From positions 1 to 33,901 of IMG/VR virus record IMGVR_UViG_2671180699_000001: 33,901 nucleotides of DNA. One strand, 5' to 3'. Positions within the stretch are counted from its first letter, which is position 1; the number at the start of each line of letters is the position of its first letter. Origin of the DNA: a virus (Duplodnaviria; Heunggongvirae; Uroviricota; Caudoviricetes). Below are positions 9,133 to 32,610 of the stretch, one piece after another. The translations under genes and the position numbers were made by a program. Under the pieces are notes generated by a model. The model was not told where the DNA came from and ran no database searches. It worked only from the letters and a program-made list of their open reading frames with translations.

Positions 9133-9672
9133 ATGCAACCACTTACATACCAACAGACTAGCGGATTTATTCCGACTGCGGTGATAAATCGTTCTCAAAC
9201 AAAACAAGCTCCAGGCCACGAAAAAATCCGTGATGCCGTCCGCGCCTGGTCGGCTGTAGATAATCAGGATGTCGTTGCCGCACTCATTGTGAATGAGTAT
9301 CGGGAGCAGGGCGACGGCACCATCGATTTCCCTGATGATGTCAGCCGTGCACGCCAGAAGCTGTTCCGCTTCCTCGATAACAAATTCGATTCTGAAAAAT
9401 ACCGAAATAACGTGCGTGAACTGACCCCGGCAATTCTGGCGGTACTACCGCTGGAATATCGCGGTTACCTGGTTGAGCAGGATAGCTTCATGACTCGGTT
9501 GGCTGAAATGGAAAAGGAACTCAGTGAGGCAAAACAGGCTGTCATTCTCAACGCACCACGCCACCAGAAACTGAAGGAAATGAGTGAAGGTATTGTGTCG
9601 ATGTTTCGTGTGGACCCGGATCTGGCTGGTCCATTAATGGCGATGGTGACCACCATGCTGGGGGCAATATGA
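9133..9672 (+). CDS. YdaT-family regulator (CII functional analogue position, 179 aa)
   Basis: Motif LTPAILAVLPLEYRGYL resembles the YdaT family as recalled; sits between cro and O. Confidence 0.65.
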   Translation: MQPLTYQQTSGFIPTAVINRSQTKQAPGHEKIRDAVRAWSAVDNQDVVAALIVNEYREQGDGTIDFPDDVSRARQKLFRFLDNKFDSEKYRNNVRELTPAILAVLPLEYRGYLVEQDSFMTRLAEMEKELSEAKQAVILNAPRHQKLKEMSEGIVSMFRVDPDLAGPLMAMVTTMLGAI

Positions 9673-9758
9673 CAGGTTCAGAAATGGCGAAAGTCGGTCT
9701 GCGGGAACAGAACCGACTTTCAGGTGCAAATCGTAACACACTCATTGCGGGAGGAATT

Positions 9759-10688
9759 ATGGCAAACACTGCTGAGATATTCAATTTTCCAGTGCCGGAT
9801 GCGGCACAAAAGGAGCCGCGCGTGGCAGATCTCGATGATGGTTATACGCGCATTGCAAATGAGTTGCTGGAAGCTGTGATGCTGGCCGGATTAACACAGC
9901 ACCAGCTTCTGGTCTTCCTGGCTGTCATGCGCAAAACATATGGCTTTAATAAAAAACTGGATTGGGTGAGCAACGAGCAACTTTCCGAGTTGACCGGGAT
10001 ATTGCCGCACAAGTGTTCTGCTGCAAAAAGTGTTCTGGTAAAGCGTGGGATTTTTATTCAGAGCGGGCGGAATATCGGCATTAATAATGTGGTCAGTGAA
10101 TGGTCAACATTACCCGAATCAGGTAAGAAAAATAAAGTTTACCTGAAAGAGGTAAATTTACCTGAATCAGGTAAGAAAAGTTTACCCAAATCAGGTAAAG
10201 GCACTTACCCGAATCAGGTAAACACAAAATACAAACTAACAAAAGACAATATAAAACCTTTTTCGTCCGAGAATTCTGGCGAATCCTCTGACCAACCAGA
10301 AAACGATCTTCCTGTGGAGAAACCAGATGCTGCAATTCAGAGCGGCAGCAGGTGGGGGACAGCAGAAGACCTGACCGCCGCAGAGTGGATGTTTGACATG
10401 GTGAAGACCATCGCGCCATCAGCCAGAAAACCGAATTTTGCAGGGTGGGCTAACGATATCCGCCTGATGCGTGAACGTGACGGCCGTAACCACCGCGACA
10501 TGTGCGTGCTGTTCCGCTGGGCATGCCAGGACAACTTCTGGTCCGGTAACGTGCTAAGTCCGGCCAAACTCCGCGACAAGTGGACCCAACTCGAAATCAA
10601 CCGTAACAAGCAACAGGCTGGCGTGATAGCCGGAAAATCAAAACTCGACCTGACAAACACTGACTGGATTTACGGGGTGGATTTATGA
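9759..10688 (+). CDS. O: Replication initiator O (lambda O type); ORF opens at 9669 but the GGGAGGA-preceded ATG at 9759 is the likely start
   Basis: …VADLDDGY…L…KTYG…NK…SEWS… resembles lambda O as recalled; iterons embedded in the gene. Confidence 0.92.
   Translation: MANTAEIFNFPVPDAAQKEPRVADLDDGYTRIANELLEAVMLAGLTQHQLLVFLAVMRKTYGFNKKLDWVSNEQLSELTGILPHKCSAAKSVLVKRGIFIQSGRNIGINNVVSEWSTLPESGKKNKVYLKEVNLPESGKKSLPKSGKGTYPNQVNTKYKLTKDNIKPFSSENSGESSDQPENDLPVEKPDAAIQSGSRWGTAEDLTAAEWMFDMVKTIAPSARKPNFAGWANDIRLMRERDGRNHRDMCVLFRWACQDNFWSGNVLSPAKLRDKWTQLEINRNKQQAGVIAGKSKLDLTNTDWIYGVDL
10110..10223 (+). repeat. Origin iterons: five about 18-bp direct repeats (TTACCYRAATCAGGTAA, one degenerate) followed by an AT-rich tract to about 10262
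   Basis: Repeats read directly inside O, as in ori-lambda (which has four). Confidence 0.85.
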
Positions 10689-11386
10689 AAAACATCGCCG
10701 CACAGATGGTTAACTTTGACCGTGAGCAGATGCGCCGGATCGCCAACAACATGCCGGAACAGTACGACGAAAAGCCGCAGGTACAACAGGTAGCGCAGAT
10801 CATCAATGGTGTGTTCAGCCAGTTACTGGCAACTTTCCCGGCGAGCCTGGCTAACCGGGACCAGAACGAACTGAACGAAATCCGCCGCCAGTGGGTTCTG
10901 GCTTTCCGGGAAAACGGGATCACCACGATGGAACAGGTTAACGCAGGAATGCGCGTAGCCCGTCGGCAGAATCGACCATTCCTGCCATCACCCGGGCAGT
11001 TTGTTGCCTGGTGCCGGGAAGAAGCATCCGTTACCGCCGGGCTGCCAAACGCCAGCGAGCTGGTTGATATGGTTTACGAGTATTGCCGGAAACGTGGCCT
11101 GTATCCAGATGCAGAGTCTTATCCGTGGAAATCAAACGCGCACTACTGGCTGGTTACCAACCTGTATCAGAACATGCGGGCCAATGCGCTGACTGATGCG
11201 GAATTACGGCGCAAGGCTGCCGATGAACTGGCCTGTATGACAGCGCGAATTAACCGTGGTGAGGCGATACCTGAACCAGTAAAACAACTTCCTGTCATGG
11301 GCGGGAGACCGCTTAATCGTGTTCAGGCTCTGGCGAAGATCGCAGAAATCAAAGCGAAGTTTGGGCTGAAAGGAGCAAGTGTATGA
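10685..11386 (+). CDS. P: Replication protein P (DnaB helicase loader, 233 aa)
   Basis: Same length and position as lambda P; sequence recognised as lambda P type. Confidence 0.93.
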   Translation: MKNIAAQMVNFDREQMRRIANNMPEQYDEKPQVQQVAQIINGVFSQLLATFPASLANRDQNELNEIRRQWVLAFRENGITTMEQVNAGMRVARRQNRPFLPSPGQFVAWCREEASVTAGLPNASELVDMVYEYCRKRGLYPDAESYPWKSNAHYWLVTNLYQNMRANALTDAELRRKAADELACMTARINRGEAIPEPVKQLPVMGGRPLNRVQALAKIAEIKAKFGLKGASV

Positions 11387-11670
11387 CGGGCAAAGAGGCA
11401 ATTATTCATTACCTGGGGACTCATAAGAACTTCTGTGCGCAGGACGTTGCCGCGGTAACAGGCGCAACCGTAACCAGCATAAATCAGGCTGCGGCTAAAA
11501 TGGCGCGGTCAGGAATCCTGGTCGTTGATGGTAAGGTCTGGCGAACGGTGTATTACCGGTTCGCTACCAGAGAAGAACGGGAAGGAAAGGTGAGCACGAA
11601 TCTGATTTTTAAGGAGTGTCGTCAAAGTGCCGCGATGAAGCGGGTGTTGGCTTTATATGGAAGAGAGTAG
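11383..11670 (+). CDS. ren: Ren (95 aa)
   Basis: Same size and position as lambda ren, directly after P. Confidence 0.85.
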   Translation: MTGKEAIIHYLGTHKNFCAQDVAAVTGATVTSINQAAAKMARSGILVVDGKVWRTVYYRFATREEREGKVSTNLIFKECRQSAAMKRVLALYGRE

Positions 11671-11734
11671 GTATGAGCAATTATTGTTACTAATTTTAGT
11701 TTTACGACATTCGTGATAACTAAATAATTGATGT

Positions 11735-11989
11735 GTGGAACTGAATTATAAAGGGGATGATGTTTTGGGAAATAAAGAAAATATCGATTGTAAGCACACA
11801 AGAAGCTCATGCTATAAAAACAAGCAGATGAAAGATGTTATTTATATTACATTGCCTAAACTCACTGAAGAAGAAGTAGAAATTTTTAAGGGACCAATGC
11901 ATAAAGCATTGCTTGCAGGGATAAATGTTACAAAAAAGGCAGTTTCTGATGCCCTGCTAAACAAAGGGATAAAAGTTGAATTTAAATAG
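11735..11989 (+). CDS. Small hypothetical ORF in the ren-nin insertion (start uncertain; GTG, TTG or ATG giving 53-84 aa)
   Basis: AT-rich, Lys-rich; convergent with the 472-aa gene; weak start signals. Confidence 0.3.
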   Translation: MELNYKGDDVLGNKENIDCKHTRSSCYKNKQMKDVIYITLPKLTEEEVEIFKGPMHKALLAGINVTKKAVSDALLNKGIKVEFK

Positions 11990-12004
11990 AGTAATTCAGT
12001 GGCA

Positions 12005-12032
12005 ACAATAGCACTCATTTGTGAGTGCTATT
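12005..12032. terminator. Bidirectional hairpin terminator between convergent genes (12-bp perfect stem CAATAGCACTCA / TGAGTGCTATTG)
   Basis: Read directly; sits in the 50-bp gap between the two convergent ORFs. Confidence 0.6.
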
Positions 12033-12040
12033 GAAATTTA

Positions 12041-13459
12041 TTAGAAAATAATGTTTGCTATATCCGAGATAGCATTTAAAGAACCTCTGTGGTCACTTCC
12101 TGTTTTAGGTAAAATATAGGAATATCGAGGGTCTTCATTATATGTTAACTTCCAGTGTTTTCCATCGCTTGACGCACTGAAACCTAAGTCCTTTAAATTT
12201 CTTTGTGTTGCGCTATCCATGCTTCTGTAACCTGTTAAAGTCCTTTTAAGTAATTGGCGGCGACTCTCGGTTTCTTTATTGTATTCATTATTGGCAATTA
12301 GGGATGATAAGATATGGTAGCTTCTACCAAATTCATTTTTATTTTTTATGGCAGTTTTTAGTGCGTCAATAATTATATTTTTGATTTCTCCATCAAAAAA
12401 ATCAGTCTCTTCACCAGCATTAAGCACAATGCTTCCTTGGGCTGAAGCTTGTGATTGAAGAGTGCGTACTCTGTGCTCTAAAGAGGAGATCTTATGCTTA
12501 AGATCTTCTATTTGGTCATCTTTCGCAACATTATCGGCTTCGTAAAGCGCCATCAGTTCGCGTGTGTATTCTCCTCTTTCTTTGAGTGAGTTAATAGAGT
12601 CTTTCGTTTTTCTGGTTTGTATCTCACTCCATCCACTATCTGAGACAGGAGCCATTGTAGTCGTAGCTCTTACAACATCATCAAATAACTCATCTTCAAA
12701 TTCTTTTGCGGTTTTCTCACCACGGCGATAAAAACTGATATTTTGACCCCGTGGCCAATAGATACCAACAGCACCAGCATAGGCATTTTTAGCATTTGTC
12801 TCATTTTTTAGCTTAATAGAAAATAGTCTATTGCTAGGCTCAATTAATACATGTGCTAATCCGCATACCTTTCTTGCAAGGCGTTCTGGGATGATATTGT
12901 GAGCATGTTCATTAAAAAAATACTTGGAGCTAACGTATATTATTGGTAGTCTGTTGTCAGTTTCACCATTTATAACTTTAGCTGCTATATTTAAATGTTC
13001 ATCAGTATCATCTAAGGAATGAGGTTCGACTGACACCTTGAAAATATCATCAAGACCACCAGAAAATTTATCAATCAATCTCATAACAACTAATGGTTTC
13101 TTAGGTTGCGGGGCTAGATAAGCTGCATCTTGGCTTACAACGCTAGATTCCACCTGAATCCACATGGTATCAGTTTTGAGATTTTTATTAATTGAAATAT
13201 CTGTTACCCATTTGTGTGGCTCAGATATTTTCGAATACCTAAAACAGCCTAAACTAGTATCTTTGTTTTTATAAGTTATTATATCAATTCTTTCATTTTT
13301 AGACTCTATGAAGTACTCCTCGCTTTTATAATCACATACTAATTGTGCTGGAATAAAAGTTGTATGTGGTGAGTCGTTTACCCAAGAAAAACATTCATTA
13401 AAGATCTCAGCTAGAGATGTGGAGTTTGAAACATAAAAACCAGTTGAGAAATATTTCAT
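12041..13459 (-). CDS. Orphan 472-aa protein in the ren-nin insertion; function unknown, candidate anti-phage/abortive-infection protein
   Basis: Long uninterrupted ORF on the strand opposite to the replication/nin operon; low GC; central coiled-coil (EDLKHKISSLEHRVRTLQSQ); no TM helices, no Walker A seen. Confidence 0.75.
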   Translation of the reverse strand: MKYFSTGFYVSNSTSLAEIFNECFSWVNDSPHTTFIPAQLVCDYKSEEYFIESKNERIDIITYKNKDTSLGCFRYSKISEPHKWVTDISINKNLKTDTMWIQVESSVVSQDAAYLAPQPKKPLVVMRLIDKFSGGLDDIFKVSVEPHSLDDTDEHLNIAAKVINGETDNRLPIIYVSSKYFFNEHAHNIIPERLARKVCGLAHVLIEPSNRLFSIKLKNETNAKNAYAGAVGIYWPRGQNISFYRRGEKTAKEFEDELFDDVVRATTTMAPVSDSGWSEIQTRKTKDSINSLKERGEYTRELMALYEADNVAKDDQIEDLKHKISSLEHRVRTLQSQASAQGSIVLNAGEETDFFDGEIKNIIIDALKTAIKNKNEFGRSYHILSSLIANNEYNKETESRRQLLKRTLTGYRSMDSATQRNLKDLGFSASSDGKHWKLTYNEDPRYSYILPKTGSDHRGSLNAISDIANIIF

Positions 13460-13734
13460 GAAATTTCCTTATTAAAAATGAGATTAATCTCATTGGCTAT
13501 GATAATTGTTACCCTCCTTTGGATCTAGTGTTCATTTGACATAAGAACCTATTGATTCATCATAATCAACTCGCCATAATCATGTCATCGGAGCCTGAAC
13601 AACTCCGGTGACTTCTGCGCTTTGAGGGGACTCAAAGTGCAAACGACAATCAGAACACCTTTCAACCAGTCACAGATGCAGAAATGCACCTGCGATATCT
13701 TGCATCCAACGTTTGACCTCTGCGGAGGTGAAGC

Positions 13735-14190
13735 GTGAACCTCCCACAAGATGGTATCAAATTGCATCGCGGTAACTTCACCGCTATCGGTCGGCAGATC
13801 CAGCCTTATCTGGAGGACGGCAAATGCTTTCGCATGGTGCTTAAACCGTGGCGCGAGAGACGCAGTCTTTCCCAGAATGCACTCAGCCACATGTGGTACA
13901 GCGAAATCAGTGAATACCTCATCAGCAAGGGTAAAACGTTCGCCACTCCAGCTTGGGTAAAAGATGCTCTCAAACACACATATCTCGGTTATGAAACCAA
14001 AGACCTGGTTGATGTCGTAACCGGTGATATCACCACTATCCAGTCGTTACGCCATACCTCCGATCTTGATACCGGAGAGATGTATGTCTTCCTGTGTAAG
14101 GTTGAAGCCTGGGCGGTGAATATTGGCTGCCACCTGACTATTCCGCAGAGCTGCGAGTTCCAGCTGCTCCGCGACAAGCAGGAGGCGTAA
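13735..14190 (+). CDS. ybcN: YbcN/NinB-family protein (151 aa, GTG start per ORF track)
   Basis: SLSQN…W motif typical of the NinB family; DLP12-type nin gene order. Confidence 0.8.
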
Positions 14191-14643: not shown

Positions 14644-15002
14644 ATACCTACAGCATCACATTACCCTGGCCTCCGAGCAATAATCGCTATTACCGCCATA
14701 ATCGCGGGCGCACGCACGTCAGCGCAGAGGGGCAGGCATACCGCGATAACGTCGCCCGAATCATTAAAAACGCAATGCTGGATATCGGCCTGGCTATGCC
14801 TGTGAAAATCCGCATTGAGTGCCACATGCCGGATCGCCGTCGCCGTGACCTGGATAATCTGCAAAAAGCCGCTTTTGACGCACTCACTAAAGCAGGTTTC
14901 TGGCTGGATGATGCTCAGGTCGTTGATTACCGCGTTGTGAAGATGCCTGTTACCAAAGGTGGGAGGCTGGAACTGACCATCACCGAAATGGGGAATGAAT
15001 GA
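14640..15002 (+). CDS. rusA: RusA Holliday-junction resolvase (120 aa)
   Basis: [37 protein letters not shown]… recognised as E. coli RusA. Confidence 0.95.
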
Positions 15003-15139
15003 TGTTTGAGTTTTATATGGCAGAACGTCTTCGCCACCGCTGGGGGCGTCTGCGCTTATATCGTTTCCCCGGTTCTGTTTTGACCGATTACCGAATACTG
15101 AAGAATTACGCCAAAACCCTGACAGGAGCAGGAGTATGA
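14999..15139 (+). CDS. ylcG: YlcG-like small protein (46 aa)
   Basis: [46 protein letters not shown]; overlaps rusA stop. Confidence 0.7.
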
Positions 15140-15265: not shown

Positions 15266-15275
15266 NNNNNNNNNN
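15266..15275. other. Assembly gap (10 N)
   Basis: N run in sequence. Confidence 0.99.
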
Positions 15276-15468
15276 GCCACCGACGGCATTGCGGTCAGAA
15301 AAAGATGATATTGAATCGCCCATTGAAAAACTGGAGGGCAGCGTCGCTGATCTGAATAAAAAATTGTCGGTGCTGATTCCTTCTGAAGATGAAAAAAAAC
15401 GCCGCGATGAGCAGTTTGCGGCGTTTTACGATTATTGCATTGAAGTTACTCTCGCAGGAATTTTGTGA
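15276..15468 (+). CDS. 3' fragment of an unidentified gene continuing from the gap (…SPIEKLEGSVADLNKKLSVLIPSEDEKKRRDEQFAAFYDYCIEVTLAGIL)
   Basis: Open frame runs from the gap edge; overlaps the minus-strand ORF below, so only one of the two is likely real. Confidence 0.25.
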
Positions 15469-15708
15469 AGATTTTTGAGGAGGGTAAATCTCTTCAGTAA
15501 GCTTAATGGCGGACGCTGCAATTAATTCAGGAAGGTCCGCAAGGTCATCTGTCAGTGGATATGATGAAAAATCGGCGGCAGTTCTGTTAAGAAGCGCTTT
15601 AACTAATTCCTTTTCCTTCTCCGGCAACAAGTTGATTAGAGCTACGACTGCTTGCCTGAGTGCGATTAAATCAGCAAAAGTTTGTTTAGGTAGATTTGTG
15701 TAATCCAT
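15295..15708 (-). CDS. Hypothetical protein upstream of and divergent from the lysozyme gene
   Basis: ATG with GAGG 6 nt upstream; N-terminal 100 aa look protein-like, C-terminal part overlaps the plus-strand fragment. Confidence 0.35.
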   Translation of the reverse strand: MDYTNLPKQTFADLIALRQAVVALINLLPEKEKELVKALLNRTAADFSSYPLTDDLADLPELIAASAIKLTEEIYPPQKSSQNSCESNFNAIIVKRRKLLIAAFFFIFRRNQHRQFFIQISDAALQFFNGRFNIIFF

Positions 15709-15821: not shown

Positions 15822-16849
<1,028 letters not shown>

Positions 16850-17212
16850 ATTAATATTAAATCGGATTATTTTTAGCGCTGAATGTGAAATTTAAATAAA
16901 AAGGACTCTTCCATGAGTCAAAATCCTTGAAATCTTAAGGGTAAGATAAAAGGTCATTAGACAGAATGACACGTTTTATTAATAAATAAAGCTATTGTTT
17001 CATTCGTGTGTTTTTCTTTACAAAAGTAATCCTTGCTATGGTTGGTTAATCATGCGTTAATGGTGTTCTGGTTTGTTACAAAATTATCTGAAGCAGTCAT
17101 TGTTATAATTTTATTATTTGTACCTCTTGAGATTTCCTTGTTGGTTTTTCTCTCTGATATTTTTTTTCGGACCATTCTGCCCAAGGGCTAACTTCTTCAA
17201 AAGGTAATAATG

Positions 17213-17425
17213 ATGTCTAACAAAATGACTGGTTTAGTGAAATGGTTTAACCCTGAAAAAGGTTTTGGTTTCATCACGCCGAAAGATGGTAGCAAAGATG
17301 TGTTTGTCCATTTCTCAGCTATTCAGAGCAACGATTTCAAAACGTTAACTGAGAATCAGGAAGTCGAATTTGGTATTGAGAACGGACCTAAAGGCCCCGC
17401 GGCTGTTCATGTTGTGGCACTTTGA
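17213..17425 (+). CDS. cspI: Cold-shock protein (CspA family; CspI-like)
   Basis: [38 protein letters not shown]… with RNP1/RNP2 motifs. Confidence 0.93.
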
Positions 17426-17630
17426 GGTAGAAAATATTACAAACCATATTCACTTTAGATGCCCGTGTTGCCATGGTTCTCAGTATAGAACATCATCTTT
17501 TGATGTTTCTGACAGGAATCCTTTCGGGGCAAAATGTATCTTTTGTAAATCAATGATGATTACATTTGATAATATTTCACAATACTTAAATGTTAGCCGT
17601 CTATCGTTAGATTTAAGAAAGTGAAAATGA

Positions 17631-17653
17631 AGGCTCCTTCGGGAGCTTTTTTG
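17631..17653 (+). terminator. Rho-independent terminator
   Basis: AGGCTCC TTCG GGAGCT followed by TTTTTTG. Confidence 0.7.
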
Positions 17654-17736
17654 CTTAGTGTCTAGTCGATGGATACTCACATATTACGGTAACATTATGA
17701 AAAAAAATAATAGTTTTTTTTAACTCTGAACCAGCA

Positions 17737-17928
17737 ATGGTAGTGCCAGTGATGACCGGAGTTAACACCATCATGCGTGAATATCCAAATGGCGAAACAA
17801 CACACCTCACTGTAATGGCTGCAGGGTTTCCATCTCTGACCGGAGATCATAAAGTCATTTATGTAGCAGCGGATCGACATGTAACTTCAGAAGAAATTCT
17901 GGAAGCAGCAATGAGACTCTTGAATTGA
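17737..17928 (+). CDS. YnfN-like small protein (Qin-type cargo)
   Basis: Small ORF adjacent to gnsB as in Qin; start uncertain. Confidence 0.5.
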   Translation: MVVPVMTGVNTIMREYPNGETTHLTVMAAGFPSLTGDHKVIYVAADRHVTSEEILEAAMRLLN

Positions 17929-18100
17929 TTTGATTCTAATGCATTGATAATAAATGATAATCATCTTTATCTGTTTGTGTGAAATTTAGACCGTCGTATG
18001 TTGATTATTGCGATGTTTCATCTTATCTTTTATACGTTTGCTCCATATAATTGACACTACTGTGTACCAGGAAAGTCATAACAGACTAAAAGAGGAAATG

Positions 18101-18274
18101 ATGAACATTGAAGAGTTAAAAACAAAAACAGAAGCAGATATTTCTGAATATATAACAAAAAAAATCATTGAGCTTAAGAAAAAGACCGGGAAAGAAGTTA
18201 CCAGTATCCAGTTTACTGCACGGGAAAAAATGACTGGTCTTGAAAGCTATGATATCAAGATTGATTTAATCTAG
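18101..18274 (+). CDS. gnsB: GnsA/GnsB-family protein (57 aa)
   Basis: MNIEELKTKTEADISEYITKKIIELKKKTGKEVTSIQFTAREKMTGLESYDIKIDLI matches the Gns family. Confidence 0.85.
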   Translation: MNIEELKTKTEADISEYITKKIIELKKKTGKEVTSIQFTAREKMTGLESYDIKIDLI

Positions 18275-32600: not shown

Positions 32601-32610
32601 NNNNNNNNNN
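32601..32610. other. Assembly gap (10 N)
   Basis: N run in sequence. Confidence 0.99.

Follow-up and report, generated by a model that had tools for sequence, protein, structure and literature searches.

The window, a 33,901-nucleotide stretch of DNA (IMG/VR record IMGVR_UViG_2671180699_000001, positions 1 to 33,901), holds a lambdoid prophage of Escherichia coli in which a low-GC cargo cassette occupies the junction between ren and ninB. The cassette carries, on the strand opposite to the surrounding early genes, a gene for a 472-residue protein (WP_042028685.1) that, from its sequence, most likely joins a scaffold of the type found in the candidate defence protein HEC-07 to a HicA-like effector domain, a new combination. 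The 2.2 kb around this gene are 100% identical to E. coli EFF60, where the prophage adjoins tRNA-Arg and intD, the DLP12 site. The locus comprises the following genes and features, with the parts of the protein given at their coding positions.

Left of the cassette, rightward early genes: a cro-like gene, a YdaT-like gene, O (9669-10688), P (10685-11386) and ren (11383-11670)
11650-13551 (1,902 bp): low-GC cargo cassette replacing the ren-ninB junction, delimited by alignment with a sister prophage
11735-11989, plus strand: small convergent open reading frame (ORF), 84 residues from a GTG codon (ORF and RefSeq annotation)
12006-12033: perfect 12-bp stem with a 4-nt loop, terminator-like, between the convergent stop codons
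12041-13459, minus strand: gene of the 472-residue protein, HEC-07-like scaffold with a HicA-like C terminus (ORF and RefSeq annotation)
12044-12214, minus strand: C-terminal domain predicted to be HicA-like, residues 416-472, α-β-β-β-α, with invariant His435
Residues 358-409: helical linker (AlphaFold2 model)
12449-12631, minus strand: long helix or coiled coil, residues 277-337, with an 'ELxxLYExDN' motif in common with HEC-07
12650-13042, minus strand: middle α/β domain, residues 140-270, thioredoxin-like without CxxC
13055-13459, minus strand: N-terminal domain, residues 1-135, β-sheet and helices, START/Bet v 1-like
13466-13470, minus strand: Shine-Dalgarno-like AAGGA, 6 nt ahead of the ATG (direct sequence reading)
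13559-13588, minus strand: promoter-like site ATGACA-18-TATGAT, 10/12 (consensus scan only)
Right of the cassette: ninB/ybcN (13735-14190), followed by ninE, ybcO and rusA

The limits of the cassette were provided by a sister prophage in E. coli 16F5M1D1 (L086), which is 97.5% identical to the window up to position 11649 and 95.3% identical from position 13552; since homology ends and restarts at these two points, the exchanged segment is 11650-13551. Its GC content is 0.346 compared with 0.511 in both flanks, and only 73 bp lie between ren and ninB in lambda. A preliminary description, made from the DNA alone, had placed about 2 kb of low-GC DNA at a junction where lambda ren directly precedes ninB, with a 472-residue ORF, a small convergent ORF and a hairpin between them, and had called for comparison with a related prophage lacking the insert. 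The insert (GC of 0.32-0.37 throughout, against ~0.51 in the flanks), the measured lambda gap and both ORFs, which RefSeq also annotates, agree with that account; the hairpin has the perfect 12-bp stem described, shifted by one base to 12006-12033 from 12005-12032; and the comparison with L086 gave exact borders together with a different 804-bp cargo at the same ren/ninB junction (L086:1851-2654, corresponding to 11650-13551 of the window). That cargo comprises two small plus-strand ORFs of 102 and 67 residues, both without a Pfam family, with a third small annotated ORF immediately past its right edge. Spacing of the L086 type (1.5 kb) is found in ~100 complete E. coli genomes. Among complete E. 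coli genomes (n = 5,426), the flanking genes occur in 3,717 and the cassette of the window in only 24. Some E. coli copies, on three IMG/VR contigs (L097, L101 and L106) and in NZ_CP060073.1, have ~2 kb of extra DNA between the 472-residue gene and ninB, annotated in the last of these as an IS3 transposase.

The promoter-like site precedes the start codon of the 472-residue gene by ~100 nt, and together with the AAGGA sequence and the terminator-like hairpin it fits expression in the lysogen that is independent of the repressed pR operon. The earlier proposal that the gene is cargo on the opposite strand, with transcription of its own, at a ren/ninB junction of variable content is supported.

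The protein was initially regarded as an orphan, and this is overturned by the size of its family. A word-indexed search revealed 75 related clusters of ~470-residue 'hypothetical proteins', with 45-81% identity in Enterobacterales, ~40% in Pseudomonas, and further members in Caulobacter and others. A HMMER scan of 50%-identity clusters with a 40-sequence profile recovered 3,489 clusters with E ≤ 1e-3, of which 1,041 have E ≤ 1e-30. Among the best 150 cluster representatives nearly all are 460-480 residues long and align end to end, with a few shorter or N-terminally extended. Relatives are present in 131 species, from a scan of one genome per species, and these are distributed over Alpha-, Beta- and Gammaproteobacteria, Planctomycetota, Acidobacteriota, Verrucomicrobiota, Nitrospira and Gemmatimonas. 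Nineteen residues are invariant among 40 diverse members, including His203 (of a G-x-A-H-V motif), Gly426, Phe427, His435, Asp443, Arg445 and Tyr446. Against homologues at 71-77% protein identity, the nonsynonymous measure pN is 0.14-0.17 and the synonymous measure pS is 0.76-0.81, with synonymous sites saturated; the gene is thus under strong purifying selection. Searches of Pfam and NCBIfam with the whole protein and three fragments returned coiled-coil noise only, as did a sequence profile search of the PDB, and a literature search on the accessions gave no matches. Residues 411-467 match phrog_2053 (E = 9e-8), a PHROG family of unknown function and uninformative here.

The AlphaFold2 model of the protein (predicted local distance difference test, pLDDT, 83.5) revealed the five parts listed above. 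The middle domain holds the invariant G200-x-A202-H203-V motif, which is common to HEC-07. The long helix at residues 277-337 corresponds to the central coiled coil noticed at the outset and suggests, from the model, that the protein is an oligomer. Neither a Walker A motif nor a hydrophobic segment is present in the protein (maximum KD19 0.75), as had also been stated for Walker A and transmembrane helices. With the full model, Foldseek found no PDB match at E ≤ 0.001, and the first two domains gave weak thioredoxin-like and SRPBCC matches, all at E > 0.001.

HEC-07 is one of nine 'Hma-embedded candidates' described by Payne et al. (bioRxiv 10.1101/2024.01.29.577857), Hma being a helicase-methylase-ATPase system. 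Seven of the nine lowered plaquing in E. coli, and HEC-07 is among these seven because only HEC-01 and HEC-09 failed. The representative tested was WP_033943166.1 of P. aeruginosa (549 residues), for which the same preprint predicts an AdoMetDC-like N terminus (template 3C6K), a thioredoxin-like domain without CxxC and a RelE-like C terminus with a conserved His543. The first 399 residues of this protein, taken from Table S2 of the preprint, were used to recover the full 549-residue protein and its family. The PADLOC library produced a single match for the 472-residue protein, to the HEC-07 model PDLC04161 (E = 1e-9, 35.8 bits), and the statement that no family could be recognised is thereby withdrawn. 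The match spans residues 83-334 and only positions 107-366 of the 553-position profile. Within the 40-member set the same model is matched by 38 sequences (best E = 1.9e-14) and a second HEC-07 model by 13.

Alignment with hhalign extended this relationship, with a probability of 95.4% for the family profile against the HEC-07 sequence and of 97.2% for profile against profile (30 HEC-07 sequences; E = 3e-11, 342 columns), where residues 5-365 of the 472-residue protein are aligned with residues 27-421 of HEC-07. Three motifs are common to both families, 'W-[VI]-T-[DE]-[IV]', 'G-x-A-H-V' and 'EL-x-x-LYE-x-DN'. The two proteins, each the product of a single gene, thus have homologous N-terminal regions of ~360 residues, in which the model of the 472-residue protein places counterparts of both the AdoMetDC-like (START-like) first domain and the thioredoxin-like second domain without CxxC, followed by the coiled coil. 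Both are also predicted to terminate in a domain of RNase-toxin type with a conserved histidine. Identity is just 16-18%, however, and the 472-residue protein is ~80 residues shorter. The alignment ends ahead of both C-terminal domains, and it is here that the proteins differ most: HEC-07 ends in '...FRLYFFWDDExQVVVVGWLPSHLDNR', by eye a RelE/ParE-type pattern in agreement with the preprint, whereas the 472-residue family has no RelE-family domain with a late histidine such as His543 and carries instead a HicA-like end ('LGF..DGKHWKL..RY..LPKTGSD', with His435). In addition, the 472-residue gene lies in a prophage between ren and ninB, and not within any Hma system.

The C-terminal 68 residues were modelled separately (pLDDT 80.8) and their best fold matches were HicA toxins. 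The model has the double-stranded RNA-binding domain (dsRBD)-like α-β-β-β-α fold of HicA in ~55 residues, as in the toxins of PF07927 from E. coli (PDB code 6HPB) and B. pseudomallei (PDB code 6G26). Pfam HicA_toxin was the commonest weak match among 25 domain sequences (6 of the 25, best E = 0.0048), and the PADLOC HicA-like model was matched by 17 of the 25 (best E = 4e-5), with nearly the whole model covered by the domain of the window at E = 0.0062. An hhalign comparison of the domain profile with E. coli K-12 HicA (translated from NC_000913) gave a probability of 69% and a pairwise E of 4.3e-5, pairing 'LGF..DGKH-WKL' with 'QGV..GSNH-LKL' such that the invariant His435 falls in register on His23 of HicA, at the turn between β1 and β2. 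The conserved histidine of HicA is the catalytic residue. The scores are weak throughout, the domain of the window itself has no match to PF07927 in Pfam, and the gathering threshold was not reached. HicA sequences are, however, very divergent (phmmer with E. coli HicA found no other HicA in the PDB), and weak sequence scores are therefore to be expected. As the scores, though weak, are concordant with one another and with the modelled fold, the C terminus is probably a HicA-like RNase domain.

The protein nevertheless differs from HicA toxins in its fused N-terminal scaffold of 400 residues, in the additional invariant residues Asp443, Arg445 and Tyr446, in Pfam scores below the gathering threshold and in having no HicB neighbour, there being no adjacent HicB antitoxin gene recurring over 78 loci of family members. 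Given the lack of a RelE-like end, the sub-threshold Pfam score and the lack of a HicB partner, it is classed as a variant, and not as HEC-07 or as a classical HicA. Stand-alone homologues of the C-terminal domain (55-119 residues) were considered as free toxins, a reading that was dropped as they appear to be fragments or split genes. In Streptococcus mutans (L083:2717-4110), a 395-residue ORF lies directly upstream of a 59-residue ORF that constitutes the HicA-like domain, apparently a split family member; in S. mutans OMZ175 (L082:2748-4180) only the 59-residue ORF is called, with an uncalled gap beside it and an adjoining KAP NTPase gene.

Proteins with a fused HicA domain have been surveyed by Gerdes (mBio 2024, PMC10865869). 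In that survey, class 13 comprises proteins of 340-440 residues with an α-rich N terminus and class 14 SMC/coiled coil-HicA fusions, and a role in defence is proposed by analogy with CapRel. As in both classes, whose HicA domain is canonical, the 472-residue protein is monocistronic and carries its C-terminal HicA-like domain after an extensive N-terminal part with a coiled coil. It differs from them in that its N terminus is β-rich START-like and thioredoxin-like and not mainly helical or SMC, and in the 460-480-residue length of its family. WP_042028685 was not found in the class lists of the supplement, whose relevant sheets (11-14) were covered in part. CapRel-SJ46, as described in PMC10865869, offers a working model in which a single polypeptide contains a non-toxin domain that keeps the toxin inactive and also detects a phage product, leading to arrest of translation; the domains are unrelated, being a tRNA pyrophosphokinase in CapRel-SJ46 and a HicA-like RNase in the 472-residue protein.

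Prophages, integrase islands and small plasmids repeatedly carry members of the family as solitary cargo, and the distribution over many phyla is patchy. Members are present on 31 IMG/VR viral contigs (24-100% identity) and absent from 50,697 GenBank phage records. Between an integrase and the chromosome, at the end of a DUF927-type integrative element known at two chromosomal sites, the sole gene is a homologue with 77% identity that is common in E. coli and Salmonella. In Klebsiella, mobilizable ColRNAI plasmids of 5.9 kb carry as their main cargo a homologue with 49% identity, beside a RelE/ParE pair. On one of these plasmids (L096, K. pneumoniae p3_085072, 5,897 bp), the homologue fills a quarter of the sequence, and the genes for a RelE/ParE toxin and a TraY-domain protein lie immediately upstream of it. 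No neighbouring gene recurs over the 78 loci. The immediate neighbours include an integrase and many housekeeping genes, and family members are sometimes beside other candidate defence genes, namely PDC-S19 (three loci), a type IIG restriction enzyme, PD-T4-6, DrmMI, mad6, DUF3644/HEPN (three) and PIN (three). The DUF3644 domain of the three neighbours is the HEPN domain of HEC-08 (bioRxiv 10.1101/2024.01.29.577857).

The small convergent ORF is conserved only over its C-terminal ~50 residues, and the C-terminal profile matches only the E. coli cassette, a Siccibacter prophage (L004) and a viral contig (L110), whose three small ORFs differ in their N-terminal parts. The small-ORF homologues of L004 and L110 show 44-47% identity, the large gene is 76% identical in L004 and 68% identical in L110, and both cassettes again lie between P-like and nin-like genes, which are 48-85% identical to those of the window. 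The module was not found in ~110 other loci of the family or in the 50,697 phage records. Being restricted to three lambdoid contexts, the small ORF is consequently no general partner of the family, yet its occurrence in lambdoid phages is tied to that of the large gene. The earlier label of a single-gene system thus stands for ~110 loci without a conserved neighbour and has to be qualified for three diverged lambdoid prophages in which the small ORF travels with the gene. Profile-library searches gave no family match for the small ORF. A ribbon-helix-helix reading, made by eye, received no support from a PDB profile search and was set aside. NZ_CP073976.1 (L088:1636-1890) labels the 84-residue ORF 'phospholipase D-like domain-containing protein', which Pfam did not reproduce.

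The hairpin between the two genes has a folding energy of -17 kcal/mol (z = -4.7), and none of 200 shuffled sequences folds as well. In all three phages (the window, L004 and L110), the 40-50 nt that separate the convergent stop codons hold a strong hairpin of -16 to -18 kcal/mol, and the three hairpins are unrelated in sequence.

Taken together, these data favour, with moderate confidence, a joint reading in which the cassette is a moron, that is, self-transcribed cargo opposing the direction of the prophage early operon, and encodes a lysogen-expressed, self-inhibited, one-protein abortive-infection defence composed of a sensor scaffold and an RNase. Its support comprises the homology to HEC-07, the HicA-like fold with its aligned histidine, purifying selection and repeated solitary carriage on mobile elements. 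In the lysogen, the 472-residue protein would be made from its own promoter, with the N-terminal scaffold (START-like domain, thioredoxin-like domain with invariant histidine, and coiled coil) restraining the RNase as an antitoxin in cis. Infection by another phage would be sensed through the scaffold, and the HicA-like domain, with His435 as its catalytic residue, would then be freed to cleave mRNA and stop translation, such that the phage burst fails and infection is abortive. The restraint of the RNase by the scaffold is proposed from the example of CapRel and other defences built as toxin-antitoxin fusions, which Gerdes discusses for fused HicA proteins (PMC10865869). For the anti-phage role suggested initially, the ~360-residue sequence homology to a single-gene system that reduces plaquing now argues in favour; the orphan status has fallen away.

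Other functions can be envisaged for such a protein. A fused toxin and cis-antitoxin might act as an addiction or stabilisation module, mainly penalising loss of the mobile element and not stopping phages; the toxin-type C-terminal domain would suit this, as would the constant location of the gene on mobile elements and its position as main cargo of the 5.9-kb mobilizable plasmids with a RelE/ParE toxin pair beside it. It is not obvious, however, how one stable polypeptide would bring about post-segregational killing by differential decay, and the nearest tested relative, HEC-07, has a defence phenotype, so that addiction as the main function appears unlikely, although the two roles are compatible. 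It is also conceivable, if quite improbable, that the dsRBD-like C terminus binds RNA without cleaving it and serves the biology of the phage itself as a regulatory prophage protein. The HicA fold is indeed a dsRBD fold, every HicA score is below threshold, and the invariant Asp443, Arg445 and Tyr446 fall outside the canonical HicA signature. Against this, the invariant histidine aligns with the conserved His23 of HicA, a defence protein with a homologous scaffold ends in another type of RNase toxin, and the gene also occurs on plasmids, in islands and beside housekeeping genes; as it is found outside phages, it is independent of the biology of any one phage.

That the gene is a decaying remnant or a chance ORF in AT-rich junk DNA is scarcely credible. 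The low GC content and the lack of a Pfam or NCBIfam family might suggest it, but the reading is excluded by the conservation data: a length of 460-480 residues in the best 150 cluster representatives of 3,489, 19 invariant residues and a pN of 0.15 against a saturated pS of 0.77; the AlphaFold2 model is also confident.

Under the favoured reading of a self-inhibited defence protein, the orientation of the gene may bear on self-immunity. After induction of lambda, early transcription runs from pR through the nin genes to the Q region. Downstream of the cassette the window has rusA and ylcG, which are followed by Q in the EFF60 prophage; early transcription after induction would therefore cross the cassette antisense to the 472-residue gene. 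Such a crossing could silence the gene during the lytic growth of its own prophage. A more elaborate proposal, which we consider doubtful, is that the lambdoid cassette forms a two-part, phage-adapted immunity unit, with the HEC-07 scaffold as a portable sensor for RelE-like or HicA-like RNases. In such a unit the RNase protein may be made in the lysogen only, antisense pR transcription through the gene may protect the prophage's own induction, and the small ORF of the early operon may be a self-immunity factor or an antitoxin.

Elsewhere in the window, a YdaT_toxin domain (E = 4.3e-30) is encoded by the ORF in the cII position (9133-9672). GC content also falls, to 0.30-0.38, at 16850-19300, after the lysis genes; this second stretch is a csp-ymcF-gns cluster, comprising a cold-shock protein gene (17210-17425; CSD, E = 1.7e-31), a YmcF-like ORF (17370-17624) and an ORF of the GnsA/GnsB toxin family (18008-18274). 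Two runs of 10 N (15266-15275 and 32601-32610) represent assembly gaps or masking. Around the first of these, the interval from ylcG (14999-15139) to the lysozyme gene (15822-16355) shows no Q antiterminator or holin gene, although the EFF60 prophage has Q there; a 137-residue ORF on the minus strand (15295-15708), without a Pfam family, adjoins the gap.

HEC-07 is known from one preprint alone, without a mechanism. Its ~360-residue scaffold is found here in a far larger family with a HicA-like end, and the conserved 'sensor' half is thereby separable from an exchangeable 'warhead' half. Warhead swapping is common among defence systems, and the interest of the exchange as such is moderate. The E. 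coli-native version, in its own host and prophage, is a tractable handle on an uncharacterised sensor scaffold, with His203 of the shared GxAHV motif and His435 of the effector as targets for mutation, and the ren/ninB junction of lambdoid prophages joins the list of sites at which such cargo is exchanged.

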